A program made the position numbers and the translations under genes. Shown here piece by piece: positions 980 to 18,484 of a DNA stretch of 32,000 nucleotides. The stretch lies in contig CP065004.1 of assembly GCA_016700135.1 (NCBI GenBank), positions 570,001 to 602,000 on the forward strand. The letters run 5' to 3'. The notes under the pieces were generated by a model that worked only from the letters and a program-made list of their open reading frames with translations, had not been told where the DNA came from and did no database searches. The DNA is from Candidatus Saccharimonadota bacterium. Its GTDB lineage: Bacteria; Patescibacteriota; Microgenomatia; UBA1406; GWC2-37-13. The number at the start of each line of letters is the position of its first letter. Position 1 is the first letter of the stretch.

Positions 980-1029
980 TAAGTCACTCTCCCCCGGGAA
1001 AAAGAGGGAAGAGAGGAGAGGTTTAAAAG

Positions 1030-1043
1030 ATTGTCATGACAAT
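1030..1043. promoter_or_regulatory. Perfect 14-bp palindrome ATTGTCATGACAAT in the long aclB upstream region (candidate operator)
   Basis: Read directly: positions 1030-1043 equal their own reverse complement. It lies in a 415-445 nt non-coding stretch. A palindrome of this length could occur by chance in 32 kb. Confidence 0.2.
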
Positions 1044-1424
1044 ATAAATCCTTTACAAGGTTATAAAAGGGAAGCAAAAAAGTACCTAAAAACGCGTCGT
1101 TTAATGTAATATTAGAGTGTTTTTTTGAAATTTTGACCTTGGCCGGAAATATTAATTTTTCTTCTAAATTTGTATTTTTTATAAAAATATTATTGTTTTT
1201 ATTCAAGATAAATTAATTTTTTCTTGACGGGGGAGAGGTTTTAGAATTTTATGGATTTGAAGAGAGGGTCTGAGGAAAGGGGGACGAAGATGGAAAGGAC
1301 TACTCTATCAGCCTGCCTTCTAATTTAGCTTATTATTAAGCCAAAATGCGAATGATATTCTCTGGCATATCGACTAAAATAGTAACCCGTAAGGGTGAGT
1401 ATTATTATTGATTCGAAATCTATT

Positions 1425-2618
1425 ATGTCACGTGTCAAGCTTACTGAATTTAAAGCAAAACAACTCCTTTTTCAAGAGTTAGGCAAAAATTATAAAGGAA
1501 TTGCAGTGACGAAAGAAGGTAAGTCTTACCGATTCTCCTCTTCTCTGTCCCAACTCTCTCCTAAAAAAGAGTACGCGGTAAAAGTAGATCAAGGAATCAA
1601 GGGCCGTATGAAAAAAGGGCTGGTGGCACTAAACGTTAAGAAATCGGATCTGCAGAATATATGTAACCTTTTTGCTCAGAAAGGCTTTACCCGATACCTT
1701 GTGGAAGAAATGCTGCCTCACGAGTCAGCTCAGGAAAAGTATATCTCACTTGAAAGAACCCGTGACGGAATTCTGGTGCGGTTTGCTGCTCAGGGCGGAA
1801 TTGATATTGAAAGTAATAAAGATAAGGTTCGGACTGTTGTGATAACTCATAATGCTCCTCTACCTGTACTGAAAGATCTTGGATTGAAGGCAGAAGAGTT
1901 TGAGGTAATGCGGGAATTATTCGAGAAAAATTATATTTCTTTCATGGAAATAAATCCGTTGGTCATCACTGAGTCAGGGATGCATGCTCTTGATTTAGCT
2001 GTTGAAGTGGATAGTACCGCTGAGTTTTTTGTTAAAAACGGGTGGACAGGTCAGGATGTTGTTGCTGAACAAACCAAATCTGAAGAAGAACAAAAAGTAA
2101 AAGAGCTGAATAGTAAAAGTCAGGCTGCTTTATCGTTTACTCTGTTGAATCAGGACGGATCGATTTGGTGTCTATTATCGGGAGGCGGTGCCAGTATTAC
2201 TCTTGCTGATGAGATTTACAATCTTGGCTATGGACAAGAGCTCGGGAATTACGGGGAGTACTCCGGTAATCCGAATCAGGAGGAAACCTATCTGTATACT
2301 ACATATGTTCTGCAGTCCATGCTGAAAAGTAACAATAAGAAGTTAGTATTGATTATCGGCGGCGGAGTTGCAAATTTTACCGATATCCGAACTACCTTTA
2401 AAGGAGTCCTTCAGGCTCTTGAGGAATATAGAACCCTGCTAAAAAAGCGCAATGTAAAGTTGTATGTTCGCCGCGGAGGTCCTCATCAGGAGGAAGGACT
2501 CGCAATGATTGAAAAGTGGTCACGGGAAAATAATTTGTATGGACATGTTTCAGGTCCGGAACTTCCCCTTCATGAAATTGTACGTCTTGCCGTTAAAACA
2601 TTACCAAAAAAGAAATAA
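1425..2618 (+). CDS. aclB: ATP-citrate lyase beta subunit (succinyl-CoA synthetase beta-like, ATP-grasp)
   Basis: The N-terminus 'MSRVKLTEFKAKQLLF' parallels the ACLY N-terminus (MSAKAISEQTGKELLYKF). At ~397 aa it matches the size of two-subunit AclB (~400 aa). aclA follows 2 nt downstream. The ORF track starts at GTG 1395; ATG 1425 fits homologs better. Confidence 0.8.
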   Translation: MSRVKLTEFKAKQLLFQELGKNYKGIAVTKEGKSYRFSSSLSQLSPKKEYAVKVDQGIKGRMKKGLVALNVKKSDLQNICNLFAQKGFTRYLVEEMLPHESAQEKYISLERTRDGILVRFAAQGGIDIESNKDKVRTVVITHNAPLPVLKDLGLKAEEFEVMRELFEKNYISFMEINPLVITESGMHALDLAVEVDSTAEFFVKNGWTGQDVVAEQTKSEEEQKVKELNSKSQAALSFTLLNQDGSIWCLLSGGGASITLADEIYNLGYGQELGNYGEYSGNPNQEETYLYTTYVLQSMLKSNNKKLVLIIGGGVANFTDIRTTFKGVLQALEEYRTLLKKRNVKLYVRRGGPHQEEGLAMIEKWSRENNLYGHVSGPELPLHEIVRLAVKTLPKKK

Positions 2619-2620
2619 GT

Positions 2621-4408
2621 ATGCTTGACCTCACCAAACTCAGAAATACTGATCATTCAATCATTGCTCTCGGTTCACATCCCGGGATCTTACAGTCAAT
2701 GATGGATTTTGATTATCTGTCAGGAAAACGCGTGCCCGACTTAAAGGCAATTGTTGCATCGGGTAAAAAGTATTTACGACTGTTTTGGGGCAGTCAGGAA
2801 GAAATGATACCGGTGTACGGAACGCTAGAAGATGTCCCTGAAAATATCAGAAACGATACTTCTCTGTTCCTGAATTTAACATCTGGAAGAAGATCAATGT
2901 CCTCTACTCTTGAGATTCTTACGGCACTACCCAATCTCATGGGCGGCACTCTCTTTGCAGAAAATATTCCGGAAAAAAATACTCTCGGTATTTATAATCA
3001 TATAAAGAAAAATCAGTTTGTTGTCGGTCCGGCATCTGTCGGACTGCTGATCCCGGGACATCTTAAACTCGGCGCAATAGGCGGGACTCAGGCAAAACAA
3101 CTACTGGGGGCAAACCTTTTCGAACAAGGCAAGGTTGCTGTGTTTTCATCATCCGGAGGCATGACCAATGAACTTATAAATCTGGTCACCGGAGCCGGTA
3201 AAGGGATTTCATTCAGTCTGTCATTCGGTGGTGATAGGTTTCCGCTGCTCACTCCGATAGATGCCTTTAGGGCTGCAGAAAAGGATAAAAACACTGAGGC
3301 GATAGTTTACTTCGGAGAGCTCGGAGGCTATGATGAGTATGATTTGGTTGAACTTATCAAGGCAAAGAAGATTACAAAAAAAATCATAACATATATCGGC
3401 GGGACGATCAGTGAAATGTTTGAGACGCCTCCCCAGTTTGGACATGCCAAGGCGATGGCCGCAAGGGGAGAGGAAACAGCGCAGGCAAAAACAGCTGCGT
3501 TAAAAGCTGTCGGAGTACATGCAACAAGTTCCTTTACGGAGTTTATCAAACTTGTCCAGTCTTTACCTGATACGAAGATGAATTCTAATAATGCACGTGA
3601 AAAAATGGCAAAAGGAATGTCACAGAGGAAAGCATCTTACTTTATTAACGGAATATCACACGATAAAGACGGTTCCGTTGAAATTGTCGGAAAAGATTTA
3701 CTATCTCTGGCCACAGAACACTCGTATGGATATGTTGTTGGATCAATGCTGTTGGGAAGACAGCTTAAATCCAAAAATACGGCCGAGTTTATTGATCTGG
3801 TGATGAAGCTGCTGGTTGACCATGGCCCGTATGTCTCAGGGGCCGTTAACACGATGATTTCAGCCCGTGCAGGCAAAGATCTGGTATCTTCTGTCGTATC
3901 CGGTCTGTTGACAATAGGACCGCGTTTTGGAGGTGCAATCAACCAGGCAGCGAAACACTGGCTTGAAGGTGTCGATACGCAGGTGTCACCTTACGATTAT
4001 GTCGAATCAATAGCAAAAAAAAGAGGCATTATTTCCGGCATAGGGCATAAAAAGTATCGTGTAGATGCGCCGGATCCGCGCGCGTCCTTGATACTCGAGT
4101 TTACCAAACAGATAAAACAGACATCCTATACAGATTTTGCAAAAGGGGTAGAAAAAATAACTACCGCAAAAAAAGGGAATCTTATTTTGAATGTAGATGG
4201 CGCGATTGCGGCAGTGCTGCTTGATTTGTTATCAGAAAAGGAAGGCCTCACGGTGCGGGAGTTACAGGAATTGATAGATGCTGAGTTCTTTAATGCTTTT
4301 TTTGTACTGTCACGTGCCGTTGGATTTACCGCACATTACCTGGATCAAAAGCGAAGAGATGAAGGATTGTTTAGATTGTCACCAAATGAAGTCGGGTTGA
4401 CAAAGTAA
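2621..4408 (+). CDS. aclA: ATP-citrate lyase alpha subunit (CoA-binding/SCS-alpha-like domain fused to a citrate-synthase-like citryl-CoA lyase domain)
   Basis: The phosphohistidine loop is 'PQFGHAKAM' (His codon 3443-3445; canonical GHAGA). The citrate-synthase signature is 'GIGHKKYRVDAPDPRA' (His codon 4046-4048). The C-terminal 'AHYLDQKRRDEGLFRL' closely mirrors ACLY 'GHYLDQKRLKQGLYRH'. At 595 aa it is close to the ~600 aa of AclA. Confidence 0.85.
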   Translation: MLDLTKLRNTDHSIIALGSHPGILQSMMDFDYLSGKRVPDLKAIVASGKKYLRLFWGSQEEMIPVYGTLEDVPENIRNDTSLFLNLTSGRRSMSSTLEILTALPNLMGGTLFAENIPEKNTLGIYNHIKKNQFVVGPASVGLLIPGHLKLGAIGGTQAKQLLGANLFEQGKVAVFSSSGGMTNELINLVTGAGKGISFSLSFGGDRFPLLTPIDAFRAAEKDKNTEAIVYFGELGGYDEYDLVELIKAKKITKKIITYIGGTISEMFETPPQFGHAKAMAARGEETAQAKTAALKAVGVHATSSFTEFIKLVQSLPDTKMNSNNAREKMAKGMSQRKASYFINGISHDKDGSVEIVGKDLLSLATEHSYGYVVGSMLLGRQLKSKNTAEFIDLVMKLLVDHGPYVSGAVNTMISARAGKDLVSSVVSGLLTIGPRFGGAINQAAKHWLEGVDTQVSPYDYVESIAKKRGIISGIGHKKYRVDAPDPRASLILEFTKQIKQTSYTDFAKGVEKITTAKKGNLILNVDGAIAAVLLDLLSEKEGLTVRELQELIDAEFFNAFFVLSRAVGFTAHYLDQKRRDEGLFRLSPNEVGLTK

Positions 4409-4445
4409 CTCTCTGAGATTATAATTCCAGTATTACTGAAAAACT

Positions 4446-4706
4446 ATGACAAGACTTGAAGTATTATCAGACTGTTGGGGAGCGCCTCCAAAGGAATATC
4501 CCGAAGATCTTCCGAGGTGTAATTATTGTTATGACGGGACTTGTGGGTCAGTATTTATTCATGTCCCAGCTGAAATTTATTCGGCTGTTATGTTCGGAGA
4601 AATGACTGTCGACCAACTTATTAAAGAGGGTTATCTATCGTCTTCGCCTCCACCGTGTGAGAAAACAGGAGCCAAAAGAATTCATACATCAACGACACTG
4701 GGATAA
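4446..4706 (+). CDS. Hypothetical small Cys-containing protein (86 aa)
   Basis: ORF only, with no recognisable motif. It does not share the start-proximal -10 architecture of neighbouring genes: the nearest TATAAT is 4420-4425, 20 nt upstream. Confidence 0.3.
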   Translation: MTRLEVLSDCWGAPPKEYPEDLPRCNYCYDGTCGSVFIHVPAEIYSAVMFGEMTVDQLIKEGYLSSSPPPCEKTGAKRIHTSTTLG

Positions 4707-4710
4707 AGAA

Positions 4711-6534
4711 TTATTCGTCGTATTTAAATGCAAGGGCATTAATAATGAGGGTATAATCCTGTGAGTCGACGACACCGTCAAAATTGATATCTCCGCGTGC
4801 GACAATATCAGGATCATTTCTACCGACAAAATTTCTCACATACGCGATATCCACCGCATCAACGATTCCGTTTTGAAGCGGTAGGTCACCTGAAAGCAAA
4901 ATAATATTGGTAAAGTCCAGTGTATTATCACCTTTTTTAAAGGTTATGTTTGAGTCTTTACAAAGATATGTTCCGCTGATGTTTTCACTGGGTGAATTGA
5001 CACAAACACGCTTCTGTATATGTTTCGGTCCCTTTATCAGGAACGAATATTTTTTATTTAGATAAATTTTCTCGTAGTTTGTATTAGCTACATATGCACC
5101 GTCAGCTTGAGGTGAGAACTCAACTTGTTTTGTATTTACAACCTTATTTCCCTCGACAAGCTTAATCTGAATAGAAACCGGTGAAGAGTTTTTAGGCTGA
5201 GATGTAATTCCCTGTAATTTTACTCGGAAATTCACGCCTACTTTATTTGCGCTGTCATCCGGGGTTTCCGTAGGATTTTTGTCCGGTGGGAGTGATACCT
5301 CATCAGGAGCCGGCGTGGTCTCGGACGGGAATGGGGAGTTATTATAGGAAAAACAGTATAATCTGTGCTCTTCAGTACAGCTTACACCATCGTATGATAC
5401 CCATGATTTATCTGTTGCATATAATGCGCCAATAATTGCTTTTCCTTCGTTTGAAGTCCAATTATTACAGCTGTTTTTTGTATCAGGATAAGGGTTTGTT
5501 GTCATATGAATGAGAGTACCGGTCCATGCATTAAGATCAGTAACACCTGAAGCAGGTGTTACTTTTGTATCGCTGGAGTTAGTGTCTGAAATAGCAAACA
5601 GGTTTTTACCTGTTTCATCCACGCCGATAGCAGATTGGATGCAATTTGTATCATTTCCATTACATGATCTTAACCGTTCAACATTTTCTGCGAGTAATTC
5701 ACCGTTAATTGTATAAATTGGAACATCAGTATGGTTAAATCTGTCAAATGCATTGCGGGAATATGTTTCTTCGGAGTTTGTTGTACTCAAAAATGCAAAC
5801 CAGTCGCCGTCAAGACCGGCATCGGCAGCATGCTTCATACAGATTGCATCAGCCCCTTCCAAGCCACCTAGAGAACTTGCAGTATATGAATCTGATGTAG
5901 CAAATCCTTTGTAGGTGTAAGGGGTCCCTTGCCCTTTTTCAACCGTGATATCTACTTTTTTAGGTTTGGGACCATCAAGTAGAGGGAAATAATTTCCCGC
6001 AGGGCCGGCAATATCAAAATTCCAACCCTCTACGGTGTCTGACTCAAATGTAATCTTTCCTTTACCTGCATCCTTTGTTGCAAAGAAAAGTCGTGCTACA
6101 CAGAATGCATTTTTTGGAAGATTTTCATCCGTTTTTTTGGATACACGTGTCAATATAATAGTATTGACATTATCCTGTCCGGATACATCCCGCACGTCAA
6201 CGGTTTCTTCAAGACCGTTGCACGATTCTACGATCTCAGATTTTGTTGTAGATTTATCGAAAACCAAGAGATTTCGCGGATACCGAATGAGAACTGTTGC
6301 TGCAGAAAGGGGTTGTATGCTTGTAGCATGAACATCTACGGTGACTTGTTGTACCTGACTTGTAGTTATTATGGAAGGCGTGAAATAAAACTCAACATTG
6401 TTTTCAATAGCTGCCCGCGAGCGTTCACTATAATCATAGAAAAACCCCAGAATTCCGACAGCAATAGCAATCCCCACAACAAGGAGTAAGACTTTTTTCA
6501 TTTTCGGCAAGAATGATGAGTGTTGTGTTTCCAT
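4711..6534 (-). CDS. Membrane-anchored/secreted modular protein: cohesin-like module + DUF1554-like (C-type-lectin-fold) module + Pro/Thr linker + beta-sandwich + duplicated-loop dockerin
   Basis: The N-terminal signal anchor is 'KKVLLLVVGIAIAVGILGFF'. The cohesin-like pattern is 'VTVDVHATSIQPLSAATVLIRYPRNLLVFD ... ARLFFATKDAGKGKITFES'. 'LGGLEGADAICMKHAADAGLDGDWFAFLS' matches the DUF1554 pattern. The C-terminus has two dockerin repeats, 'GDLPLQNGIVDAVDIAYVRNFVG' and 'GDINFDGVVDSQDYTLIINALA'. Confidence 0.75.
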   Translation of the reverse strand: METQHSSFLPKMKKVLLLVVGIAIAVGILGFFYDYSERSRAAIENNVEFYFTPSIITTSQVQQVTVDVHATSIQPLSAATVLIRYPRNLLVFDKSTTKSEIVESCNGLEETVDVRDVSGQDNVNTIILTRVSKKTDENLPKNAFCVARLFFATKDAGKGKITFESDTVEGWNFDIAGPAGNYFPLLDGPKPKKVDITVEKGQGTPYTYKGFATSDSYTASSLGGLEGADAICMKHAADAGLDGDWFAFLSTTNSEETYSRNAFDRFNHTDVPIYTINGELLAENVERLRSCNGNDTNCIQSAIGVDETGKNLFAISDTNSSDTKVTPASGVTDLNAWTGTLIHMTTNPYPDTKNSCNNWTSNEGKAIIGALYATDKSWVSYDGVSCTEEHRLYCFSYNNSPFPSETTPAPDEVSLPPDKNPTETPDDSANKVGVNFRVKLQGITSQPKNSSPVSIQIKLVEGNKVVNTKQVEFSPQADGAYVANTNYEKIYLNKKYSFLIKGPKHIQKRVCVNSPSENISGTYLCKDSNITFKKGDNTLDFTNIILLSGDLPLQNGIVDAVDIAYVRNFVGRNDPDIVARGDINFDGVVDSQDYTLIINALAFKYDE

Positions 6535-6536
6535 AG

Positions 6537-7757
6537 TTATTCGTCACGCTGACGTACTTCTTGATTTGTTCTCCAAATTTCAAAATCCTGGAGTGTCACT
6601 TTTTGATCATTACTAAAATCGGCATCTTTTGTGTTTCTTGTTCGGGTAAATTCACTTTTCCATATATCAAAGTCATCATTGTTTATATGACTATCACAGT
6701 TCGCATCTCCAAGATTTTTTTTCGGACATTCGTCAACAGTTTCGGTTGGTGAGGTTGTAGTTGTTGTTCCCGGTGTAATAGTAGTGTTTTTCCCTCCAAC
6801 AGTGAATGTAAAGGAATCGTAGGTGAGGATAGATGCTGGAATTGTAGCCTGGTAGCCTTCGGCAACCGATACCCTAACCTTATAAATTCCTGCAGGGAGA
6901 GGAGGAAGGGTTAGCGTCTGGGAAAAAGTATTCGTACCGGATGCCAGTTCAAACTCTTGATTTATTGATCCTAATTCATCATTGGCACCTGTCAGAGTTA
7001 ACTTAGCAACAGGGCTTCTTAATTTTTTACCGGAAACTGTCAACGTTCCTGACTGTCCTTCATTTAATGTAGATGGGGATAAAGAAGCTTTGTTTTGATA
7101 TGTTACCCAAAGATCATATAATACTGATGTATATGCTTTGCCGTTTATCTGAGATGTAATGGTCGGAAGAGATGCGTTTTTGGGTGTAGCGATTGCTTTA
7201 TATGTGTAGTTTGTTCCTTCCGTAAGCCCGCTACACTTATAAGCTTTCCTCGATGTAATTTCAGAGTCAGGTACACAATCCGTGACTTTTGTATTTGTGT
7301 TAGCCCGGTATGCAGCAATTTTCGGTGCGTTATATGTCGTTGGCAATTCATCGACTTCATTCAGACTTACGCGTGTGTAGTAGGCTGGTGCAGTTGGCGG
7401 ATCTCTAATAACCTGACAGCAGCTCGGAACAGTCGCGTTTCCATCGTAGATATCATCCATACAAGCGCGTTGATATACCAGGTTTTCTGTTGCACAGATT
7501 CCTAAAGCGTGCACAGGATCAGGAATAAGATTATCAATCAAAATACTGGACATAGAACAATTTAATCCACCTGAACAGGCAGTGTCTCCGTATTGGGGAT
7601 TACAAATTTGGCCGCAAGTCCGATTGGGAGGGACGGAAGTGGGAATTGGTGAGGCTGATGATTGAGCTTTAACAGGTGCGGGCATCTCTGCATGGGTCAG
7701 AAGGAGTAATGTTATGAAAAAAAATCCGAGTATGAGAAATAAATAATGCCTTTGCAT
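6537..7757 (-). CDS. Secreted Cys-rich protein with Ig-like middle region, Thr-rich linker and C-terminal dockerin
   Basis: The signal peptide is 'MQRHYLFLILGFFFITLLLLTHA'. A Cys-rich N-domain follows. The C-terminus carries two dockerin-like repeats, 'GDANCDSHINNDDFDIWKSEF' and 'ADFSNDQKVTLQDFEIWRTN'. I prefer ATG 7757 over the track's TTG 7796 because of the -10 box at 7768-7776. The stop lies 2 nt before the start of the next gene. Confidence 0.75.
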   Translation of the reverse strand: MQRHYLFLILGFFFITLLLLTHAEMPAPVKAQSSASPIPTSVPPNRTCGQICNPQYGDTACSGGLNCSMSSILIDNLIPDPVHALGICATENLVYQRACMDDIYDGNATVPSCCQVIRDPPTAPAYYTRVSLNEVDELPTTYNAPKIAAYRANTNTKVTDCVPDSEITSRKAYKCSGLTEGTNYTYKAIATPKNASLPTITSQINGKAYTSVLYDLWVTYQNKASLSPSTLNEGQSGTLTVSGKKLRSPVAKLTLTGANDELGSINQEFELASGTNTFSQTLTLPPLPAGIYKVRVSVAEGYQATIPASILTYDSFTFTVGGKNTTITPGTTTTTSPTETVDECPKKNLGDANCDSHINNDDFDIWKSEFTRTRNTKDADFSNDQKVTLQDFEIWRTNQEVRQRDE

Positions 7758-7767
7758 GTATGCTTTT

Positions 7768-7776
7768 ACTATAGCA
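7768..7776 (-). promoter_or_regulatory. Extended -10 promoter TGCTATAGT, 10 nt upstream of ATG 7757
   Basis: The minus strand reads gacTTGCTATAGTaaaagcatacATG. No GGAGG-like motif lies in between. Confidence 0.5.
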
Positions 7777-7801
7777 AGTCTTTCTGTAAACAGCAAGATA
7801 C

Positions 7802-7810
7802 TGTTATAAT
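7802..7810 (+). promoter_or_regulatory. Extended -10 promoter TGTTATAAT, 12 nt upstream of tgt ATG 7823
   Basis: The plus strand reads acTGTTATAATacttattccaatATG, with no Shine-Dalgarno. Confidence 0.5.
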
Positions 7811-7822
7811 ACTTATTCCAAT

Positions 7823-8998
7823 ATGTTCACCTTTGATATAACTGCCAGATTAGAAGGTACTAAAGCCCGATCAGGCATATTCCATACTCCTCACAGAGAG
7901 ATTCAGACACCTGAACTTGCTATTGTGGCAACTGAAGGAGAAATTCGTTCGGTCCCGAGGGAGCTGTGGAAGGATCTTCCGAACCAGTATTTTATCGTTA
8001 ACACATACCATACGCATACAAAAAAGCTTGTCGACACAATTCAAGCACAAGGCGGAGTGCACGGCTATATGGGGCTTGGAGATCGCGCATTCGCGACAGA
8101 TAGCGGAGGATTTCAAGTATTCTCGCTTGGTTTTGGTCAAAAGCACAATATCGGTAAGTTGGCTCGGGATTTTGCGCAAGATACTGCTTTTGCTGACGAT
8201 GATGAGAGTCCGCTTACAATTACCGAAGAAGGGGTATCATTTACTTTCGACGGTAAAGAAGTACGGTTGACCCCCGAATCCTCTATGGATATACAACACC
8301 AATTAGGAGCCGACATCATGTTTGCATTTGATGAGTGTACGTCGCCTCTTAATAGTGAAGAATATACCCGTCAATCTATGGAGCGAACGCATCGGTGGCT
8401 GAAAAGATGTATCAGTGCCCATCGTGAGCATGAAGAAAAGCAGGCATTATTCGGGATTGTACAGGGAGGAGAGTATCGATCGCTTCGTGAAGAATCCGCA
8501 CGGGTTGTGGGATCGATGGATGTCCCCGGATTCGGTTTGGGAGGAAGTCTGGGAAAATTCAAAGAAGACGTACATGCGATTCTCGACTGGATTATTCCTA
8601 TCCTGCCCGACGAGAAACCGCGTCACTTTTTGGGTATCGGACAGATACGTGACATTTTTGAAAGTGTTGAGCGAGGGGTTGATCTTTTTGATTGTGTCAT
8701 CCCGACAAGAGAAGCGAGACATCGTATGCTGTATACCGAACACGGAAGAGTTAGTATCAGAAAGATGCGGAATATTGATGAAGTCCCGGATAAAAACTGT
8801 TCCTGCTATGCATGCAAAAATGACAAAATTACCTATCCGAAACTGTGGGAACTTTTCCTTGCGCGGGATCCAAGGGCAGCTATGTATGCGACGATCCATA
8901 ATGTCTGGTTCTATGCTCAGTTGACCCAAAAGATACGGAATGCAATCGGGAATAAGACTTTTATAGATCTCAAAGAAGAAGTTTATAAGTATTATTAG
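7823..8998 (+). CDS. tgt: tRNA-guanine transglycosylase (queuine tRNA-ribosyltransferase)
   Basis: 'ATDSGGFQVFSL' holds the catalytic Asp motif and 'LGIGQIRDI' the nucleophile Asp region. The Zn site is 'CSCYACKN...IHN'. Length is 391 aa. Confidence 0.95.
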   Translation: MFTFDITARLEGTKARSGIFHTPHREIQTPELAIVATEGEIRSVPRELWKDLPNQYFIVNTYHTHTKKLVDTIQAQGGVHGYMGLGDRAFATDSGGFQVFSLGFGQKHNIGKLARDFAQDTAFADDDESPLTITEEGVSFTFDGKEVRLTPESSMDIQHQLGADIMFAFDECTSPLNSEEYTRQSMERTHRWLKRCISAHREHEEKQALFGIVQGGEYRSLREESARVVGSMDVPGFGLGGSLGKFKEDVHAILDWIIPILPDEKPRHFLGIGQIRDIFESVERGVDLFDCVIPTREARHRMLYTEHGRVSIRKMRNIDEVPDKNCSCYACKNDKITYPKLWELFLARDPRAAMYATIHNVWFYAQLTQKIRNAIGNKTFIDLKEEVYKYY

Positions 8999-9076
8999 AA
9001 CAAAGTAATCTTATAAAGTCTTCTTATTTCTTCTTCTGTATTTGGTCCAAGTAAAGGATAGGTAAGAAAGTATAGT

Positions 9077-9751
9077 TTATTGATCAAATTTCTTTAATTC
9101 ATTGATCCGTCGTTCCAAATCAGCACCTGCCTTTGTCAAATAACTTCCGATACATATAATATCCGGTTGATATGATTGTGAGGAAACGGTCGGTAGGGAA
9201 TTACTATTGACACCGCCATCGATCAGAATTTCGCCATTATAGCCCTGTGCTCTAAGCTGTTCTATTTTTTGGAGCATTTGGGGCAAAAAAGGTGACCCTT
9301 GAAAGCCGGGATTCACAGTCATAATTTGAATGCTGGGAACGTAGTCCAGATCATAATTGCGTGCCAAATTATCAATGCTGACATCGGGGAATACATCCAA
9401 GCCTATAGAAAAAGAGTAAGAGCTGTTCATCTCCCCAATGTTTACTTCATGTGAGGCATTGATGAGAACGGTATTCACCTGAATATTTTCTTCCTGAATT
9501 TTTACAATCTTTTCCAATTCCGCTTCATAATCTGAAACCATAAGATGAAAATCAAAGGTAATATTCGGAAAAATAGTTACCTGATTTGATGAAAATACGT
9601 CCAGCATTTCATTAATCTGGACTGTCGTATTGGGGACTAATTGTCCGTCTGCAATATCAAGCTGAATCCGGTCATAGTATCTCTGAAAAGTGTTCATCTG
9701 TGAAATGAATTCTTCAATGGTTGTGGTGAGAAGTGTGGGAACGGTTTTCAT
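9077..9751 (-). CDS. rpe: Ribulose-phosphate 3-epimerase family protein (divergent)
   Basis: 'FDFHLMV', 'IMTVNPGFQGSPFLP' and 'ILIDGGVN' align to Rpe motifs. The first metal-ligand motif reads 'IQLDIADG' (Gln) instead of 'HxDxxDG'. Confidence 0.7.
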   Translation of the reverse strand: MKTVPTLLTTTIEEFISQMNTFQRYYDRIQLDIADGQLVPNTTVQINEMLDVFSSNQVTIFPNITFDFHLMVSDYEAELEKIVKIQEENIQVNTVLINASHEVNIGEMNSSYSFSIGLDVFPDVSIDNLARNYDLDYVPSIQIMTVNPGFQGSPFLPQMLQKIEQLRAQGYNGEILIDGGVNSNSLPTVSSQSYQPDIICIGSYLTKAGADLERRINELKKFDQ

Positions 9752-9759
9752 ATGTATTT

Positions 9760-9768
9760 ATTATAGCA
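9760..9768 (-). promoter_or_regulatory. Extended -10 promoter TGCTATAAT, 8 nt upstream of rpe ATG 9751
   Basis: The minus strand reads gagctTGCTATAATaaatacatATG. Confidence 0.5.
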
Positions 9769-9796
9769 AGCTCGTACAACTTCGGAGAATGGCAGG

Positions 9797-9802
9797 TATA
9801 AT
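9797..9802 (+). promoter_or_regulatory. -10 box TATAAT, 5 nt upstream of ATG 9808 (leaderless-type)
   Basis: The plus strand reads ggcaggTATAATaccgtATG. The context is nearly identical to the PBP promoter (TATAATtaccgtATG). Confidence 0.5.
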
Positions 9803-9807
9803 ACCGT

Positions 9808-11145
9808 ATGACTAAACAAAATACCCTGAATGAATTGTCGGAGTTCATCAGTATAAGGTCCGTTTCAGCAGACAGGACTAAGCGACCTGAAATGCGCAAA
9901 GCAATCACTTTTTTAGTAAGAAAACTAAAAAAAATGGGTTTTTCTGTGGAAATCTTAAAAAGACAAGGGGCCCCGTCTGCAATTTTTGCTAAATACTCTA
10001 TACCAAATGCAAAAAAAACAGTCGGTATATACGGACATTATGATGTCCAGCCGGAAGACCCGGTCGAGGAATGGACTGTCAGGCCGTTTGCGCTCAGCAG
10101 ACAAAGCGGAAAGTTGTTCGGAAGAGGTGTGGCAGACAATAAAGGCCACATTATTCAAAATCTTGCAGCCGTTGATTATCTTATCAGTTCGGAAAGCCTT
10201 AAATCAAATATTATTTTCTTCATTGAAGGTGAAGAAGAGTGCGGCAGTGAAAGTTTTTATTCATATATACAGGAAAAGGAACGGGAGCTCAGCTCTCTGG
10301 ATGTTTTTTTCATAACGGATGTCGGGATGCATGCTAAATCGGTACCTCAGATTATTTATGCTTTGCGCGGACTGGTATATTTTGAACTCGAGATACGGAT
10401 AGGGAAGCGGGATCTTCACTCCGGGGTATACGGGAATGCAGTTTTGAATCCGGTACAAGTGCTTGCTGAGCTGTTGGCAAAAATGAAAGATACTAAGACA
10501 GGAGAAGTTCATATTCCCGGCTTCTATGATGATGTCCGTGCGCTAAATTCGGCTGAAATGAGGCTTCTGATGAAAGGAACGGTCGATGATAAAACATTCA
10601 GGAAAGAAGCGGGGACATTCACTGTTACGTCGATGAGAAATGTTCCTTCATTCCTGGCACCAAAAATATTTCCTTCTCTCGATGTGCACGGTATACAGTC
10701 AGGATTTACCGGGGAAGGTCCCAAAACAGTGATTCCTCATCGAGCCAGGGTGAAATTTTCCTGCCGTCTGGTAGAGTTCCAGAACGTTAAGAACACTGAA
10801 AAGCAGATCCGTCAATTTATCGAAACGAATCTTCCTGCAGGCGTCCAGTATGCATTGCAGACTTTTTCGTACGATGATCCTTTTTACACTTCAGTTGACG
10901 ATCCCTATATCAAGAAAACAGCAGAAATTCTCACTGTCCATTTCGGTCATGATACTGTTTTGATGAGAGAAGGAGGCTCAGTTCCTGCCGCTGAAATGAT
11001 GCAGAGGCTTTTTAAAACACCGGTTATCCTTACCGGTTTTGTGTTGCCGGACAGCAATCTCCATGCACCTGATGAAAATTTTGATGAAGAAATGTTTTTC
11101 GAAGGGATAGAAGCCTTAAAAAAAATATACGGAAGTATTGTTTAA
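9808..11145 (+). CDS. M20 family metallopeptidase (dipeptidase / ArgE-DapE-like)
   Basis: Metal-ligand motifs 'GIYGHYDVQP', 'GRGVADNKG' and 'EGEEECGS' are present. Length is 445 aa. Confidence 0.85.
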   Translation: MTKQNTLNELSEFISIRSVSADRTKRPEMRKAITFLVRKLKKMGFSVEILKRQGAPSAIFAKYSIPNAKKTVGIYGHYDVQPEDPVEEWTVRPFALSRQSGKLFGRGVADNKGHIIQNLAAVDYLISSESLKSNIIFFIEGEEECGSESFYSYIQEKERELSSLDVFFITDVGMHAKSVPQIIYALRGLVYFELEIRIGKRDLHSGVYGNAVLNPVQVLAELLAKMKDTKTGEVHIPGFYDDVRALNSAEMRLLMKGTVDDKTFRKEAGTFTVTSMRNVPSFLAPKIFPSLDVHGIQSGFTGEGPKTVIPHRARVKFSCRLVEFQNVKNTEKQIRQFIETNLPAGVQYALQTFSYDDPFYTSVDDPYIKKTAEILTVHFGHDTVLMREGGSVPAAEMMQRLFKTPVILTGFVLPDSNLHAPDENFDEEMFFEGIEALKKIYGSIV

Positions 11146-11183
11146 TATGCAGCTCCCTGAAAACCTTCACACTGTGATAAAGC

Positions 11184-11438
11184 TCATTTCAGGTATTCTT
11201 CGTTACATTCTTTCGACTCATTGTTCGGTTCGCAGTTGACCCATGCATTGGCCGGGCAGCGCCAGTCATTATCCATTGCCTGCTGCATGACATCTTTGTT
11301 GCTAACTTCTTCCTGAGGGGCGACTACCGTTTTACTTCGAAAAAAGAGAACGATAATTATGATAATAAGAAGGAAGAGAATGCCCAGAATATATTTTATG
11401 CGATCATACTTTTTTATGCTGTGGTGTATATGTTTCAT
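11184..11438 (-). CDS. Small single-pass membrane protein with Cys-containing ectodomain (84 aa)
   Basis: The TM segment is 'ILGILFLLIIIIIVLFF'. It starts 3 nt after the gpmA stop, and an AAGGAAAGG purine run lies 8 nt upstream. I recognise no homology. Confidence 0.45.
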   Translation of the reverse strand: MKHIHHSIKKYDRIKYILGILFLLIIIIIVLFFRSKTVVAPQEEVSNKDVMQQAMDNDWRCPANAWVNCEPNNESKECNEEYLK

Positions 11439-11441
11439 AGG

Positions 11442-12074
11442 TTAAACCTTTCCTTTTTTCGGATTGGATGATCGGATTTGTTTTTCTGTGATTTTTGCCT
11501 GATCATCCATTTGATACACATAGACTTCACCGGTACCGATTTCCAGTCCGGCAATTTCATTGTCAGGTATGTCTTCAAGATATTTCACGAGCGCTCTCAA
11601 ACTGTTCCCGCTTGCTGAGACAAGGATGTTTTTGCCGGACTTCAGTTCGGGTTCGATATGTTCTTTGTAATAAGGGAGCAGGCGTTCATATACATCTTTG
11701 AGTGATTCACCGTTCGGGATAGGTTCATCCCAACCCCGACGCCATTTTGTAAACTGTTCTTCACCATATTCTTCTTTGACCACCCACTTATTCTTTCCGG
11801 CAAGATCTCCATAGTTGCGTTCGCGTACTGCAGGAGTGATCACCGTCTCCATTTCGGACTTTCCCAACGCTTTCAAAATTGTTTTTGTTGTCTCTTTGGT
11901 TCTTTGAAGGTCTGCAGTATAGGCTTTATCAAGGGGGATGTCCTGTATAGATTCGGCCGCTTTTTTCGCTTCTTCATACCCTTCCGGGGAAAGTTCAGGA
12001 TCTTTCCATCCGGTCCAAAGGCCTAATTTGTTCCATTCCGAAATACCGTGACGAACGAGCACTAAGTATGACAT
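11442..12074 (-). CDS. gpmA: 2,3-bisphosphoglycerate-dependent phosphoglycerate mutase-like histidine phosphatase (short form)
   Basis: 'LVLVRHGISEWNKLGLWTGW', 'ERNYGDLAGKNK', 'FTKWRRGW' and 'GNSLRALVKYLE' align to dPGM. The normally invariant second His ('AAHGNSLRAL') is Ser here ('SASGNSLRAL', codon 11610-11612). Confidence 0.85.
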   Translation of the reverse strand: MSYLVLVRHGISEWNKLGLWTGWKDPELSPEGYEEAKKAAESIQDIPLDKAYTADLQRTKETTKTILKALGKSEMETVITPAVRERNYGDLAGKNKWVVKEEYGEEQFTKWRRGWDEPIPNGESLKDVYERLLPYYKEHIEPELKSGKNILVSASGNSLRALVKYLEDIPDNEIAGLEIGTGEVYVYQMDDQAKITEKQIRSSNPKKGKV

Positions 12075-12081
12075 ATCCTTA

Positions 12082-12087
12082 AGTATA
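12082..12087 (-). promoter_or_regulatory. -10 box TATACT, 7 nt upstream of gpmA ATG 12074
   Basis: The minus strand reads gatgTATACTtaaggatATG. The AAGGA lies only 1 nt from the ATG, which is too close for a typical SD. Confidence 0.4.
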
Positions 12088-12115
12088 CATCATCGGAAAA
12101 AGAGTATAAAGATAT

Positions 12116-13624
12116 TTACGGAGTCGGAGTATTCGTCGGGGTGTTGGTCGGAGTCGGCGTGTATGTCGGAGTCGGTGTGGAAGTCGGACATACTGCTGAG
12201 CCTGTTGACCAGGATGACACATGGTTCGTTTCGCCGTAGCCGTCTTCAGCACGGACCCGACAGGTAATAGGCATTCCGTCTCCCGGCATTGCCGCATTGT
12301 AACAGGGAAGATTCTGATAATGGTCGGTTGTGGTGGTATTACAGTACCAGAATGAGGTGCTGTTGAAAGCTCCATCATCAGTACACTGGAGGAAATAATG
12401 ATCAAATTTATTGCTACATCTTGGATCTTTCTGGTAGTCAAAGTCCCATATCCATGAAGTACAGCTATTACCCTGGACATAATCGATATTACAATCAGGG
12501 TCATCTCCGGTGATTCTGGGGCAAGAGGAACTGCTATATATCCAGTCTGTTGCATTCTCTGAACCTCCGTCTTCAGTCTCAGCGCGTACTCGACAGAATA
12601 CAGATTGACCGGGTGCCGGTGACGGAGCTGTCGCACAGGGAAGTGATAGTTGATTGGTTGTCATGGTCTCATTACAGTACCAGGTTGCAGGATCACTTGA
12701 TCCCCAGCTGGTACTTTTACACTGAACAAAATACTTAGTATAAGTGTCTTCGCATGTCTGGCTTTGTGTCAAAACATCATTCCAGATCCATGAGGAACAG
12801 CTGTTCGGCTGAAGGTAGCTCAATGAACAGGCATTTTTTGTCGCTGCACTTACCGGTGTTGCTGTGGGTGAAGTGGAGGGAGCCGCCGTCGGAGAAGTAT
12901 TTGCACCGATCAGACATTTGACATAATCCTGAGTTGTGCACTGGGTGCCCAATGATTTCAAAATAGAAGTACAATCCGTCGTTGCCTGACAGCTTGAGCC
13001 AGTTGTCGGAGGATAGGTTGTGATACTTCCTGACGGTGTTGCTTCAGGAGTCGGATAATAAGTCACTGATCCTGAAGGTGAAGCGGTCATAGTTGGTGTC
13101 GGTACAATTGAGGGAGACGAGGTGGCCGTCTTTGTCGGAGACAATGTTGCAGAACCTGTTCCGACTTCAATAGACGGAAGGGGAACGTCGGGATCTACTT
13201 CCGTTCCTTCTCCTGCCGGAGTGGTAAAGGTCCACGGTGAACCGCCGTCATCATATACATTTTCTCCGCTTCGGATACGGAAGTAATACGTTGTATTGGG
13301 TTGAAGTCCGCCGATTTGTATTGTATGTTCGGTTGCTTCCAGATCACCGAAGGAGACTTCTGTCATAGCATCCGGAGAAGTCCCGTACTCTACAACAGCG
13401 ATTGTTTCCTTGCCTGTTTGAAAAGTGACTTGCGCACTCTGACTGTCTACCGGTGAAGCGCTTACGTTTGAAGGAGCTTCTTCATTTGCTTCTGTTGCCG
13501 TGCCCTGAATCAGAAAAAAGGTCATAATAATAATTGCCAATAAGAGAGGAATCCCGACGGAAGCGGCGATAAGCATGATCTTTCGTTGAGATAGTTTATT
13601 TTTTAGTACGGTTGCAACTGGCAT
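12116..13624 (-). CDS. Membrane-anchored surface protein: FN3-like domain, Pro/Thr/Ser linkers, 4-Cys motif and two tandem ~102-aa 8-Cys modules
   Basis: The signal anchor is 'IMLIAASVGIPLLLAIIIMTFFLI'. The FN3-like stretch is 'VTFQTGKETIAVVEYGTSPD...LQPNTTYYFRI'. Repeats C266-C368 and C378-C479 have superimposable Cys spacing. The tail is 'TPTPTYTPTPTNTPTNTPTP'. Confidence 0.8.
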   Translation of the reverse strand: MPVATVLKNKLSQRKIMLIAASVGIPLLLAIIIMTFFLIQGTATEANEEAPSNVSASPVDSQSAQVTFQTGKETIAVVEYGTSPDAMTEVSFGDLEATEHTIQIGGLQPNTTYYFRIRSGENVYDDGGSPWTFTTPAGEGTEVDPDVPLPSIEVGTGSATLSPTKTATSSPSIVPTPTMTASPSGSVTYYPTPEATPSGSITTYPPTTGSSCQATTDCTSILKSLGTQCTTQDYVKCLIGANTSPTAAPSTSPTATPVSAATKNACSLSYLQPNSCSSWIWNDVLTQSQTCEDTYTKYFVQCKSTSWGSSDPATWYCNETMTTNQLSLPCATAPSPAPGQSVFCRVRAETEDGGSENATDWIYSSSSCPRITGDDPDCNIDYVQGNSCTSWIWDFDYQKDPRCSNKFDHYFLQCTDDGAFNSTSFWYCNTTTTDHYQNLPCYNAAMPGDGMPITCRVRAEDGYGETNHVSSWSTGSAVCPTSTPTPTYTPTPTNTPTNTPTP

Positions 13625-13626
13625 AA

Positions 13627-14235
13627 TTATTTTGTTTTAAGCTTAGTCATCAGTTTGCGGTATCTCATAAACAATACTGCTGTCAGAATAATCATCAACA
13701 GTGATACGATAACGTATCCCCAAGTCGGCTGCACTCCGTTGCCCACTGAGACTCCCAAGACTTCCTGACGATCATTAATTACTACGGAAGTGGAATGTGA
13801 ACGGGTACTGGTACAGTTGATAATATTTGAAAGCTCTTCATCATTACGGATAATTTGTGATGTTTGAGACATAAAAGGAACGCAGTCAAAACGCAGTTCA
13901 GTAGAGCCTTCCTTTTGAGCCTGAAAGTATATGGTCGCGATTTTCCCGTTTGTAACCTGTTTCAGATCAGCAGACGGATTGATTGCATATATATATAAAC
14001 TTCCCGGTTGAATAACTTTTGCATCCACACTTTGGAATAATTCACCCTTTTTCAGTTCAGGGTTCTGCGGAGATGCAATACTCAGGATAGAGGGATCATA
14101 TGAGATATAAATATCAGTTGAAATTACCGGGTCCGCTCCACTGTAAATCATCACATCCACGGGGATTATATCGCCTGCAGAAGCCGAAATGTTTACCGGT
14201 TCAAAAGAAAAGGAGGCAATTGCTGATTGTGACAT
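13627..14235 (-). CDS. Cohesin-like domain protein with C-terminal TM anchor and basic tail, no N-terminal signal peptide
   Basis: The cohesin-like pattern is 'FEPVNISASAGDIIPVDVMIYSGADPVISTDIYISYDPSILSI ... GKIATIYFQAQKEGSTELRF'. The C-terminus is 'VQPTWGYVIVSLLMIILTAVLFMRYRKLMTKLKTK'. The stop lies 2 nt before the start of the next gene. Confidence 0.7.
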   Translation of the reverse strand: MSQSAIASFSFEPVNISASAGDIIPVDVMIYSGADPVISTDIYISYDPSILSIASPQNPELKKGELFQSVDAKVIQPGSLYIYAINPSADLKQVTNGKIATIYFQAQKEGSTELRFDCVPFMSQTSQIIRNDEELSNIINCTSTRSHSTSVVINDRQEVLGVSVGNGVQPTWGYVIVSLLMIILTAVLFMRYRKLMTKLKTK

Positions 14236-14241
14236 ATTATT

Positions 14242-14247
14242 ATTTTA
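14242..14247 (-). promoter_or_regulatory. -10 box TAAAAT, 6 nt upstream of ATG 14235
   Basis: The minus strand reads ccgagTAAAATaataatATG. Confidence 0.35.
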
Positions 14248-14332
14248 CTCGGATACGTGGGAAGGATGCAAGGGATACTTTTCATGAATCTTATCATGAA
14301 GCCTCCAATCCCCATTTCTTCAATCCTTTAGT

Positions 14333-15586: not shown

Positions 15587-15595
15587 AATGCTATC

Positions 15596-15604
15596 ATAAT
15601 ATCA
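15596..15604 (-). promoter_or_regulatory. Extended -10 promoter TGATATTAT, 9 nt upstream of eno ATG 15586
   Basis: The minus strand reads cttgTGATATTATgatagcattATG. Confidence 0.45.
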
Positions 15605-15629
15605 CAAGCTCAAGGAAATGTAAGACTGA

Positions 15630-15638
15630 TGTTATAAT
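15630..15638 (+). promoter_or_regulatory. Extended -10 promoter TGTTATAAT, 9 nt upstream of ATG 15648
   Basis: The plus strand reads gacTGATGTTATAATggatgatctATG. Confidence 0.5.
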
Positions 15639-15647
15639 GGATGATCT

Positions 15648-17216: not shown

Positions 17217-17225
17217 TTAAGGATA

Positions 17226-17254
17226 TTGACAGAATAAACACCTACTGCAATAAT
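17226..17254 (+). promoter_or_regulatory. Sigma70-type promoter TTGACA-17 nt-(TGc)AATAAT, 6 nt upstream of GTG 17261
   Basis: TTGACA is at 17226-17231, the spacer is 17 nt, and TGcAATAAT is at 17246-17254. 'gaaatt' follows, then GTG. Confidence 0.5.
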
Positions 17255-17762
17255 GAAATTGTGAAACAGAAACTAATTCTTCATTTTTTCCTCTTCTTGC
17301 TTATTCTCTTCATGGGCATTGGTGTAAAAGCCTCAACTCAAGGTATGGCAATTATGCCTCCTGATTCGGATCCTTCAGGAATATTCGGTGAGGATCATTA
17401 TTATTCAGTTATTTTTCGCGGTAACGGCGATACTGTCGTAAATCTGAAGGCTATCTTTACAAATACGGAAGAGGCAACGGTATCTGCAGTAACGCTGCGA
17501 GCTCCCAAAGGTCCGTTAGAAGACATCGTGGCGTATCAGATTATCAGAGACCGCAGATGTCTTCGGTACGAAACAGTCAGGATAATGCCAACTCCCGGTG
17601 TTGTTGAAGATCGTTATGATCCCCCCAAATGCATACAGTATGAGAACCCGGACTTTTATGGATATTATTATTCCGGCAATACTAAGTATAAGAAGGCAAT
17701 AGTGAAAACAGAGGGGGATGTGATAACTCTTACCCTTCCTGAAGGTGTTTCTCCCGAATCAA

Positions 17763-17769
17763 ATGCCAG
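17763..17769. repeat. Target-site duplication ATGCCAG (left copy)
   Basis: An identical 7-mer directly abuts both IS ends (17763-17769 and 18485-18491). Confidence 0.8.
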
Positions 17770-17784
17770 GGCTCTAGACTAGCA
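17770..17784. repeat. IS terminal inverted repeat (left)
   Basis: GGCTCTAGACTAGCA is the exact reverse complement of 18470-18484. Confidence 0.85.
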
Positions 17785-18448: not shown

Positions 18449-18454
18449 ACCTCT

Positions 18455-18463
18455 AGTTTAGCA
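18455..18463 (-). promoter_or_regulatory. Extended -10 TGCTAAACT inside the IS, 6 nt upstream of transposase ATG 18448
   Basis: The minus strand reads gtagTGCTAAACTagaggtATG. Confidence 0.4.
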
Positions 18464-18469
18464 CTACTC

Positions 18470-18484
18470 TGCTAGTCTAGAGCC
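18470..18484. repeat. IS terminal inverted repeat (right)
   Basis: TGCTAGTCTAGAGCC. Confidence 0.85.

Follow-up and report, generated by a model that had tools for sequence, protein, structure and literature searches.

A two-subunit ATP-citrate lyase of a Patescibacteria-specific clade with lysine in the phosphohistidine loop

The aclB-aclA gene pair

The stretch analysed here, referred to below as the window, comprises 32,000 nucleotides of contig CP065004.1 (positions 570,001 to 602,000 of the forward strand) from a member of the Patescibacteria, or Candidate Phyla Radiation (CPR). Two co-directional open reading frames (ORFs) were found at positions 1425-4408, where a preliminary description of this DNA had placed the genes of an ATP-citrate lyase (ACL), aclB and aclA. 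As judged by sequence, the two genes form a complete ACL pair; all tested features that define the enzyme are present except the canonical signature of the phosphohistidine loop, in which lysine stands in place of glycine. Pfam domains, matches to PDB sequences, fold matches and individual residues all agree with the two-subunit ACL that had been claimed. The elements of the pair, with amino acid (aa) positions counted in each subunit, are as follows.

980..1424, + strand: AT-rich, ORF-free intergenic stretch 5' of aclB, presumed promoter region
1425..2618, + strand: aclB, ACL beta subunit, 397 aa, with ATP-grasp and citrate-binding domains
1437..2045, + strand: AclB ATP-grasp domain, aa 5-207 (Pfam envelope), with K53/R61 and E175/N177/D190
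2076..2597, + strand: AclB citrate-binding domain, aa 218-391 (PF16114), with the SGGGAS loop at aa 252-257, G281, N317, T319 and R350
2621..4408, + strand: aclA, ACL alpha subunit, 595 aa, with CoA-binding and phosphohistidine domains fused to a citryl-CoA lyase module
2621..2980, + strand: AclA N-terminal CoA-binding (Rossmann-type) domain, aa 1-120, from the alignment to human ACLY, with R91 and E114
3440..3454, + strand: phosphohistidine loop GHAKA; H275 corresponds to human H760 and K277 to human G762
3629..4381, + strand: citryl-CoA lyase (citrate-synthase-like) module, aa ~337-587, from PF00285 and the match to 6hxk

The aclB gene was taken to start with the ATG at 1425. A GTG at 1395 is an alternative start, giving a protein of 407 aa, and the start at 1425 was favoured because the orthologues in the related loci L006 and L007 are 397 aa long. 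Two nucleotides separate the TAA stop codon of aclB from the ATG of aclA. Within the presumed promoter region, the sigma-70-like sequences at 1125-1153 and 1352-1380 were no more than weak matches.

A perfect sigma-70 consensus (TTGACA, 17 nt, TATAAT; 12/12) was observed at 4397-4425 (+), overlapping the stop codon of aclA and preceding an 86-aa Cys-rich ORF at 4446-4706 (+) that had no Pfam match. This ORF was considered as a conserved third subunit and rejected, since among the related genomes it is conserved only in the two closest, L006 and L007.

AclB matched the Pfam families PF24948 (ATP-citrate synthase ATP-grasp; 101.3 bits at a cut-off of 83) and PF16114 (Citrate_bind; 193.5 bits). 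AclA carries Ligase_CoA (aa 176-299) and Citrate_synt (PF00285, aa 302-585) in one ORF of 595 aa. The Pfam CoA_binding model gave no match on the AclA N-terminus. A degenerate N-terminus, as might be inferred from this, was rejected, because the domain folds confidently: in the AlphaFold2 model aa 1-120 had a predicted local distance difference test (pLDDT) score of 90 or above and a beta/alpha Rossmann-type pattern, and the same domain aligned to human ACLY from residue 499 to about 604-620. The silence of CoA_binding is uninformative, as genuine ACLs also score low or not at all with it: two of them gave 26-33 bits and two others nothing.

Sequences were compared with those of solved structures by phmmer against all PDB sequences. 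AclA matched human ACLY 499-1087 (E=2e-104), Methanosaeta concilii ACLY-B (E=4e-102), Chlorobium limicola AclA (E=8e-70) and the human citryl-CoA lyase (CCL) module 6hxk (E=3.5e-55). The values were 4e-24 or weaker for the alpha subunit of succinyl-CoA synthetase (SCS), 5e-20 for the small subunit of citryl-CoA synthetase (CCS), 1e-15 for CCL and 4e-9 or weaker for citrate synthase. AclB matched the N-terminal half of human ACLY (1e-62), M. concilii ACLY-A (2.8e-61) and the Chlorobium subunit (1.4e-39), and the CCS large subunit at 2e-13. As sequence matches, the ACL structures exceeded those of SCS, CCS, CCL and citrate synthase by 35-80 orders of magnitude.

Membership in SCS was contradicted by the NCBIfam models, with 59-64 bits for SucC (cut-offs 370-375) and 102-116 bits for SucD (cut-offs 336-353), and also by the extra Citrate_bind and Citrate_synt domains. 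The CCL models reached 61-79 bits (cut-offs 193-261), and the citrate synthase models remained far under their cut-offs. A CCS/CCL system has the synthetase small subunit and the lyase as separate proteins, whereas both are fused here in one ORF. The position of the lyase module at the C-terminus of the SCS-alpha-like part is a trait of ACL, and AclA aligns over its full length to 6hxi_B.

The lyase module with ACLY-like motifs, named in the preliminary description, was recovered by Pfam, sequence and fold matches, and the motifs quoted there were all located: GHAKA at aa 274-278 (nt 3440-3454), GIGHKKYR at aa 473-480, DPRA at aa 485-488, HYLDQKR at aa 572-578 and GLFR at aa 582-585. The AlphaFold2 model of AclA had a mean pLDDT of 81, with low values in the phosphohistidine loop (aa 263-280) and in segments 401-410 and 568-585. 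The best full-length Foldseek matches to this model were Methanothrix/Methanosaeta ACL, then human ACLY, then Chlorobium ACL (top entries 6hxi_B, 6hxh and 6hxj). The SCS-alpha-like half superimposed on human ACLY (5tdm_B) with a TM score of 0.85, and the lyase module on 6hxk/6z2h with a TM score of ~0.76.

Loss of catalytic residues had been named as a result that would speak against an ACL; in the alignments all mapped catalytic, ATP-grasp and citrate-binding residues were kept. We take the functional roles of the mapped residues to be those of the ACLY and SCS structure literature. In AclB, K53, R61, E175, N177 and D190 align to human K58, R66, E201, N203 and D216 (the human numbering of E201 and D216 is presumed and less certain); they were invariant in 72 CPR AclB sequences and kept in 20-21/21 eukaryote-type sequences. 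The citrate contacts G281, N317, T319 and R350 (human G309, N346, T348 and R379) and the GGG loop were likewise invariant in 72/72 CPR sequences. AclA residues were mapped in an alignment that included human ACLY 499-1087, with 21 clade sequences and 45 other ACLs. E114 (human E599) and H275 (H760) were invariant in the 21 clade sequences and present in 44-45 of the 45 others, and the lyase residues H401, H476, R487, D526, R565 and R585 (human H900, H975, R986, D1026, R1065 and R1085) were also invariant in the clade. K477, at the position of human R976, was considered as a catalytic loss and rejected, the position being R/K-variable across all ACLs. The dN/dS ratios of aclB and aclA against the L006 and L007 orthologues were 0.06-0.13, and values of about 0.1 indicate that both genes are under strong purifying selection.

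A Patescibacteria-specific clade and its phosphohistidine loop

Homologues were searched at E<=1e-30 among 1.84 billion cluster representatives, and the 142 clusters obtained cover essentially the entire ACL family. A neighbour-joining tree was built from the full-length representatives as an ACL-only set, with midpoint rooting and 200 bootstrap replicates. A phylogeny had been proposed as a check on the gene pair; in this tree without an outgroup, the window's sequence fell inside the ACL-only set in a clade of its own (200/200), together with P0121-P0128, which include a Dojkabacteria sequence. Under midpoint rooting, with deep order and rooting not robust, the sister group of the clade was a mixture of archaeal and eukaryote-type ACLs; among the near relatives outside the CPR, one that carries a name comes from a Candidatus Norongarragalinales archaeon. 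The Chlorobiaceae sequence P0187, ~30% identical to the CPR clade, stood outside both groups.

A scan of one genome per GTDB species gave at least 585 ACL-like loci. The best 80 of these had identities of 43-87% and were almost all from Patescibacteria; the lineages among them are Roizman-, Levy-, Woese-, Magasanik- and Kaiserbacteria, Saccharimonadales, Paceibacterota and Minisyncoccia. The clade is thus present in at least 80 species-level Patescibacteria genomes of Microgenomates, Saccharimonadales and Paceibacterota-type lineages. Its members are hidden by varied annotation names. The AclA of the window is identical to IPM65_03210 of a Candidatus Roizmanbacteria bacterium, annotated as 'hypothetical protein', and other CPR AclA proteins appear in databases as 'hypothetical protein', 'citrate/2-methylcitrate synthase' or 'succinyl-CoA synthetase alpha subunit' (P0026, P0039, P0055, P0071 and others). 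A 2024 paper credits CPR with a 'gltA citrate synthase' that complements partner genomes (PMC11608272), an assignment that might come from a mis-annotated CPR AclA.

Taxonomic titles of some records were also out of keeping with their content. Many third-party metagenome-assembled genome (MAG) records titled 'uncultured Gammaproteobacteria' carry CPR-type aclBA (L006-L010, L013, L017, L020, L024 and others), and these titles look wrong because several of the loci are colinear with Roizmanbacteria or Levybacteria loci. The record L069, titled 'Candidatus Dormiibacterota', has a CPR-type aclBA next to an acetyltransferase (GNAT) gene of Saccharimonadales type, a neighbourhood that suggests mis-binning.

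The GHAKA sequence at aa 274-278 had been presented as an oddity of this gene. The lysine was confirmed, but it is not limited to one gene; it is a signature found across the clade. GHAKA was present in 120/120 close homologues, and H275, A276, K277 and A278 were invariant in an alignment of 33 clade sequences down to 55% identity. At the K277 position lysine occurred in 20/21 clade sequences, whereas the 45 other ACLs had Gly (43), Trp (1) or Ala (1), and among representatives at 50% identity lysine was confined to the CPR clade. To our knowledge, the GHAGA loop is near-universal across the wider SCS superfamily. The loop glycine is a signature residue and not a proven catalytic one.

The sole clade member with a canonical GHAGA is P0123 (L086, 1663-3477), which otherwise looks intact. 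It is nested among lysine-bearing sequences, a lysine-only grouping having appeared in 0/200 bootstrap replicates, and its GHAGA is therefore most simply a reversion from lysine to glycine. An attempt to date the origin of the lysine from P0123 was abandoned, as this sequence lies on a 3.7-kb metagenome contig that carries no taxonomic information.

Clade-specific positions were defined as those fixed in the clade (>=90%) and fixed to another residue elsewhere (>=80%). There were only five: R91 (human S577), Q160 (N645) and K277 (G762) in AclA, and S252 (A280) and V315 (I344) in AclB. S252, which replaces human A280 in 72/72 CPR sequences, lies directly before the GGG loop. By homology with site I of SCS and ACLY, the phosphoryl group presumably passes to citrate where the His loop and the GGG loop meet, and thus at least two of the clade-defining changes, K277 and S252, would lie around that site. 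From this homology, K277, S252 and AclA R91 appear to mark a lineage-specific remodelling around the phosphoryl/citrate site.

The pair was also assessed for signs of foreign origin. The preliminary description had called for a comparison of composition with neighbouring genes, and aclBA was found to match them: GC is 0.41 and 0.44 against 0.38-0.48 for the neighbours, and both GC at third codon positions (GC3) and relative synonymous codon usage (RSCU) distance are mid-range. L006 and L007 have exactly the same gene order as the window over at least 14 kb, and L008 shares most of it; the AclA proteins of the three are 87%, 82% and 68% identical to that of the window, respectively. In L001 (Levybacteria, 5391-21794) and L003 (another lineage, 5570-21785), aclBA lies between fusA (EF-G) and the tuf/S10 operon, a placement that argues for long residence in the genome. 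With this placement the pair interrupts, unusually, one of the best conserved gene arrays of bacteria.

Recent acquisition, a binning contaminant or a chimeric assembly could be supposed, since lateral transfer from archaea was inferred for the ACL of a Gracilibacterium (Sieber et al., PMC6851277) and the nearest relatives outside the CPR include archaeal sequence. Against this stand the values of GC, GC3 and RSCU distance within the range of the neighbours, the shared gene order, the location of aclBA on a 1.45-Mb contig and a clade distribution that tracks CPR lineages, so that a foreign pair is very unlikely. The neighbour-like composition together with the synteny leaves recent transfer, contamination and chimerism unsupported: the horizontal transfer that had been offered as an option is, for a recent event, largely contradicted by composition, synteny and a Patescibacteria-wide clade, and the chimeric contig named as a possible refutation by composition and by colinearity with L006, L007 and L008. 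An ancient transfer involving archaea may have occurred, as the nearest non-CPR relatives include archaeal sequence.

Synonymous divergence from L006 (7101-10086) was uneven, with a dS of 0.36 for aclB and 1.29 for aclA, whereas against L007 both were ~1.8. The uneven values may reflect recombination or gene conversion affecting aclB.

Gene neighbourhood in the window and in related loci

The genomic setting was found as first described. Genes of the tricarboxylic acid (TCA) cycle are absent from the window, surface-protein genes lie downstream of aclBA (a dockerin-bearing 607-aa protein and a 419-aa protein), and the housekeeping genes are typical of a reduced fermenter. They encode enolase, ribulose-phosphate epimerase, RpiB, TGT, PBP1, DprA, TatD, ThyA, dUTPase and a formyltransferase, and two proteins of the histidine-phosphatase family (phosphoglycerate-mutase-like) are also present. 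Other features of the window are listed below.

4711-6534, - strand: dockerin-domain protein, 607 aa
12116-13624 and 13627-14235, - strand: fn3/purple-acid-phosphatase-N protein and cohesin-domain protein

The dockerin, fn3 and cohesin proteins look like a cohesin-dockerin surface assembly of the host, whose genome is of Candidatus Roizmanbacteria. The ORF at 26-979 has a glycoside-hydrolase-like 'ITETGW' motif and no Pfam match. A 522-aa fusion at 15648-17216 (+) joins a histidine-phosphatase (branch 1) domain to an APH-type phosphotransferase (kinase) domain. An IS1595-family (ISXO2-like) DDE transposase at 17774-18448 (-), ~13 kb from aclBA, is the sole mobile-element gene in the window.

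Neighbourhoods were compared over +-10 kb in the window and 80 related loci, 81 in total; counts in this set are not phylogenetically independent. AclA was encoded in 81/81 loci, with aclB adjacent in 75/81; the remaining six are contig ends or splits made by the ORF caller. The commonest arrangement of the two genes was a 4-nt overlap. Because no other gene was common to more than 16 loci, aclBA is regarded as a self-contained two-gene unit. Neither 2-oxoglutarate:ferredoxin oxidoreductase nor fumarate reductase nor other TCA genes were found in the window, and none recurred in the 81 neighbourhoods. In CPR genomes generally, TCA genes are reported to be few or lacking altogether (PMC8407418).

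Directly upstream of aclBA, and in the same orientation, 14 loci have a GNAT acetyltransferase gene, separated from the pair by -29 to +23 nt. These GNATs fall into two sequence clusters that were unlinked under the criteria used; in L068 (6779-7869) both types, cluster 4 and then cluster 3, stand in tandem upstream of aclBA. The gene directly downstream encodes MurB in 9 loci and GlmS in 5. Within 10 kb, 46/81 loci have one or more of GNAT, GlmS and MurB, often with RmlA/RmlB. A single cluster-4 GNAT had 3fb3/3i3g and several entries labelled as glucosamine-6-phosphate (GlcN-6-P) N-acetyltransferases among its PDB matches. With a profile of 11 members, the GNA1 structures ranked far down, and NCBIfam gave only sub-threshold generic matches. 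The upstream gene is accordingly described as a putative acetyl-CoA-dependent GNAT, and no narrower assignment was kept.

In four Roizmanbacteria-type loci (L006, L007, L008 and L050), genes for a class I/II aminotransferase and an archaeal-type phosphoenolpyruvate (PEP) carboxylase lie 3-6 kb upstream of aclBA, in the order aminotransferase, PEP carboxylase, dcd, a ~570-aa protein, aclB, aclA. From the syntenic loci L006, L007 and L008, a PEP carboxylase gene probably lies just outside the left edge of the window. The membrane proteins that recur near aclBA are an AI-2E family transporter, Wzy_C, Acyl_transf_3, EamA, PMT_2 and MFS.

Probable role of the enzyme and comparison with known systems

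On the evidence above, aclB-aclA rather probably encodes a functional heteromeric ACL of a Patescibacteria-specific clade that would cleave citrate to acetyl-CoA and oxaloacetate. Production of these two compounds from scavenged citrate, as the preliminary description had suggested, is our best reading, and the role of the enzyme is probably the supply of acetyl-CoA rather than carbon fixation. By homology, the ATP-grasp domain of AclB would phosphorylate His275 of AclA, the mobile loop would ferry the phosphate to a citrate site formed with AclB, and citryl-phosphate and then citryl-CoA would be formed. The cleavage direction would be most likely given the few, if any, TCA genes. GNATs consume acetyl-CoA, and an acetyl-CoA-dependent N-acetylation is required in the UDP-GlcNAc/MurNAc pathway, of which GlmS and MurB are part. 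With such genes recurring next to aclBA, cleavage is taken as the likeliest role. ACL would spend one ATP for activated acetate, whereas citrate lyase would give free acetate that needs activation, and ACL may thus be the cheapest path to activated acetate from host- or environment-derived citrate. The acetyl-CoA could serve N-acetylation and cell-envelope amino-sugar synthesis and the oxaloacetate could yield aspartate, a role that would parallel that of cytosolic ACLY in eukaryotes. In this way we infer the activity and its direction, the source of citrate, what becomes of the products and what Lys277 does; the data themselves show that the genes are intact, belong to the ACL family, keep its residues and are under purifying selection, and they show how the clade is distributed and which genes recur beside it.

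Several points weigh against this reading. The ACL reaction is near equilibrium, and its reverse is thermodynamically possible; Desulfobacter postgatei reportedly runs ACL towards citrate with a gain of ATP (Moeller et al. 1987). The nearby PEP carboxylase, as a source of oxaloacetate, would suit the reverse direction equally. Among the membrane proteins encoded within 10 kb of aclBA in the 81 loci, none was found to belong to the citrate-transporter families. The GNAT, GlmS and MurB genes are not found in this window, and part of their signal reflects phylogeny, as the genomes with MurB or GlmS at the locus are related to one another. Identification of the upstream GNAT as GNA1, the GlcN-6-P N-acetyltransferase, was rejected at profile level (11 members), where generic GNATs came out on top. 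The canonical G-H-A-G-A/S signature, used as diagnostic by Sieber et al. in 2019 (PMC6851277), is missing from the loop, and kinetics, regulation or substrate may be altered as a result.

The main rival is an ATP-conserving synthesis of citrate, in which acetyl-CoA, oxaloacetate, ADP and Pi would give citrate, ATP and CoA; PEP carboxylase would provide the oxaloacetate, and the citrate would enter a short oxidative branch to 2-oxoglutarate and glutamate or be exported. The near-equilibrium reaction and the Desulfobacter precedent would allow this, and the failure to find citrate transporter genes near aclBA and the archaeal-type PEP carboxylase with its aminotransferase upstream in L006, L007, L008 and L050 are in line with it. 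Pyruvate kinase is moreover present in only about one-third of CPR genomes, and conversion of PEP to oxaloacetate has been proposed as an alternative fate (PMC7304191). However, no aconitase or isocitrate dehydrogenase was found in the window or among the recurrent neighbours of the 81 loci, TCA genes are reportedly few or absent in CPR genomes, and the recurrent neighbours use acetyl-CoA or make amino sugars. The linkage to PEP carboxylase is limited to one lineage, with the unrelated dcd and ~570-aa protein in between. The reverse route would also bring no net energy gain if oxaloacetate comes from PEP, because PEP-derived oxaloacetate forgoes the ATP of pyruvate kinase. We therefore regard citrate synthesis as rather doubtful. 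A reductive TCA cycle with autotrophic CO2 fixation, for which ACL is routinely taken as the key-enzyme marker in metagenome pipelines, is scarcely credible for these small genomes: 2-oxoglutarate:ferredoxin oxidoreductase, fumarate reductase and the other TCA genes are lacking in the window and among the recurrent neighbours, few if any TCA genes are known from CPR (PMC8407418), and the Chlorobiaceae sequence P0187 shares only ~30% identity with the clade and lies apart from it in the tree.

Another possibility is that the change from glycine to lysine altered the chemistry or control of the enzyme, by use of another hydroxy-acid substrate, by altered phosphoryl transfer or by a reversible acetylation of Lys277 by the co-encoded GNAT, as a feedback from acetyl-CoA. 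K277 is invariant in the clade (save P0123) as against Gly in 43/45 other ACLs, at least two of only five clade-specific positions (K277 and AclB S252) are presumably, by homology, beside the phosphohistidine site, and a co-oriented GNAT gene is directly upstream in 14 loci. Yet the GNAT linkage is found in a minority of loci while the lysine is universal, and the clade member P0123 looks intact with a GHAGA loop. A new substrate is argued against since all citrate-contact and lyase residues are unchanged. An altered enzyme in this sense appears unlikely. It is equally improbable, in our estimate, that the clade represents a mechanistically distinct ACL in which K277, S252 and R91 alter phosphoryl carriage or switching and which would be the main source of acetyl-CoA for N-acetylation of envelope sugars. 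If it did, reversible acetylation of Lys277 by the upstream GNAT would be a possible product feedback on acetyl-CoA supply, and these bacteria would depend on hosts for citrate.

If compared with known systems, the putative citrate-cleaving ACL of the window most resembles the Methanosaeta/Methanothrix ACLY-A/B (6hxi/6znw), with the same domain order, the same two-subunit split and the top sequence and fold matches. With human ACLY (6hxh/6qfb) it has all mapped catalytic residues in common and may share an acetyl-CoA-supplying role outside the reductive TCA cycle; it differs from animal-type ACLY in that the pair is unfused, in two chains. It is set apart from archaeal and eukaryote-type ACLs by an identity of 33-36%, a separate clade, GHAKA instead of GHAGA, and R91, Q160 and AclB S252. 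The Chlorobium limicola AclBA (6hxj; Kanao et al. 2001) is the same heteromeric aclB-aclA pair with the same domains and catalytic residues, but it works in a complete reductive TCA cycle, is a much weaker match and has a tree position apart. CCS/CCL of Hydrogenobacter thermophilus (6hxq, 6hxp) has homologous domains and carries out the same overall chemistry in two steps; its lyase is a separate polypeptide, whereas AclA joins the lyase and the SCS-alpha-like domain in one chain.

ACL in CPR and the idea of citrate cleavage are already in the literature. Sieber et al. in 2019 described a two-subunit ACL in the closed genome of a Gracilibacterium (BD1-5) as cleaving citrate imported by two putative transporters, stated that ACL was 'rarely detected in CPR' and inferred lateral transfer (PMC6851277). 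That system shares with the present one the CPR host, the two genes, the absence of a TCA cycle and the citrate-scavenging interpretation. It differs in its canonical GHAGA, in being most similar to archaeal proteins and in its two putative citrate transporters (PMC6851277), so that by its published description it stands apart from the clade analysed here, which has GHAKA and for which no transporter was found within 10 kb. In a 2025 study aclAB was among the genes enriched in Saccharimonadia MAGs, without discussion (PMC12577380), and CPR sequences with wrong annotations in CCS/CCL trees are noted in a 2022 preprint. Neither acetyl-CoA nor TCA is named in the main text of the principal comparative study of CPR metabolism. 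In the literature searched, no description was found of the size or coherence of the clade, the invariant GHAKA or the linkage to acetyltransferase and amino-sugar genes.

With at least 80 species-level genomes that carry ACL, the view of the enzyme as rarely detected in CPR needs revision. A large ACL clade in non-autotrophic Patescibacteria is also a source of false autotrophy calls, because metagenome pipelines take ACL as the standard marker of a reductive TCA cycle. Lysine fixed in the loop of a whole clade provides a natural experiment on the swinging-loop mechanism. The breadth of the clade suggests that citrate serves as a currency in the relation of these episymbionts to their hosts, and that acetyl-CoA is acquired in a eukaryote-like manner.

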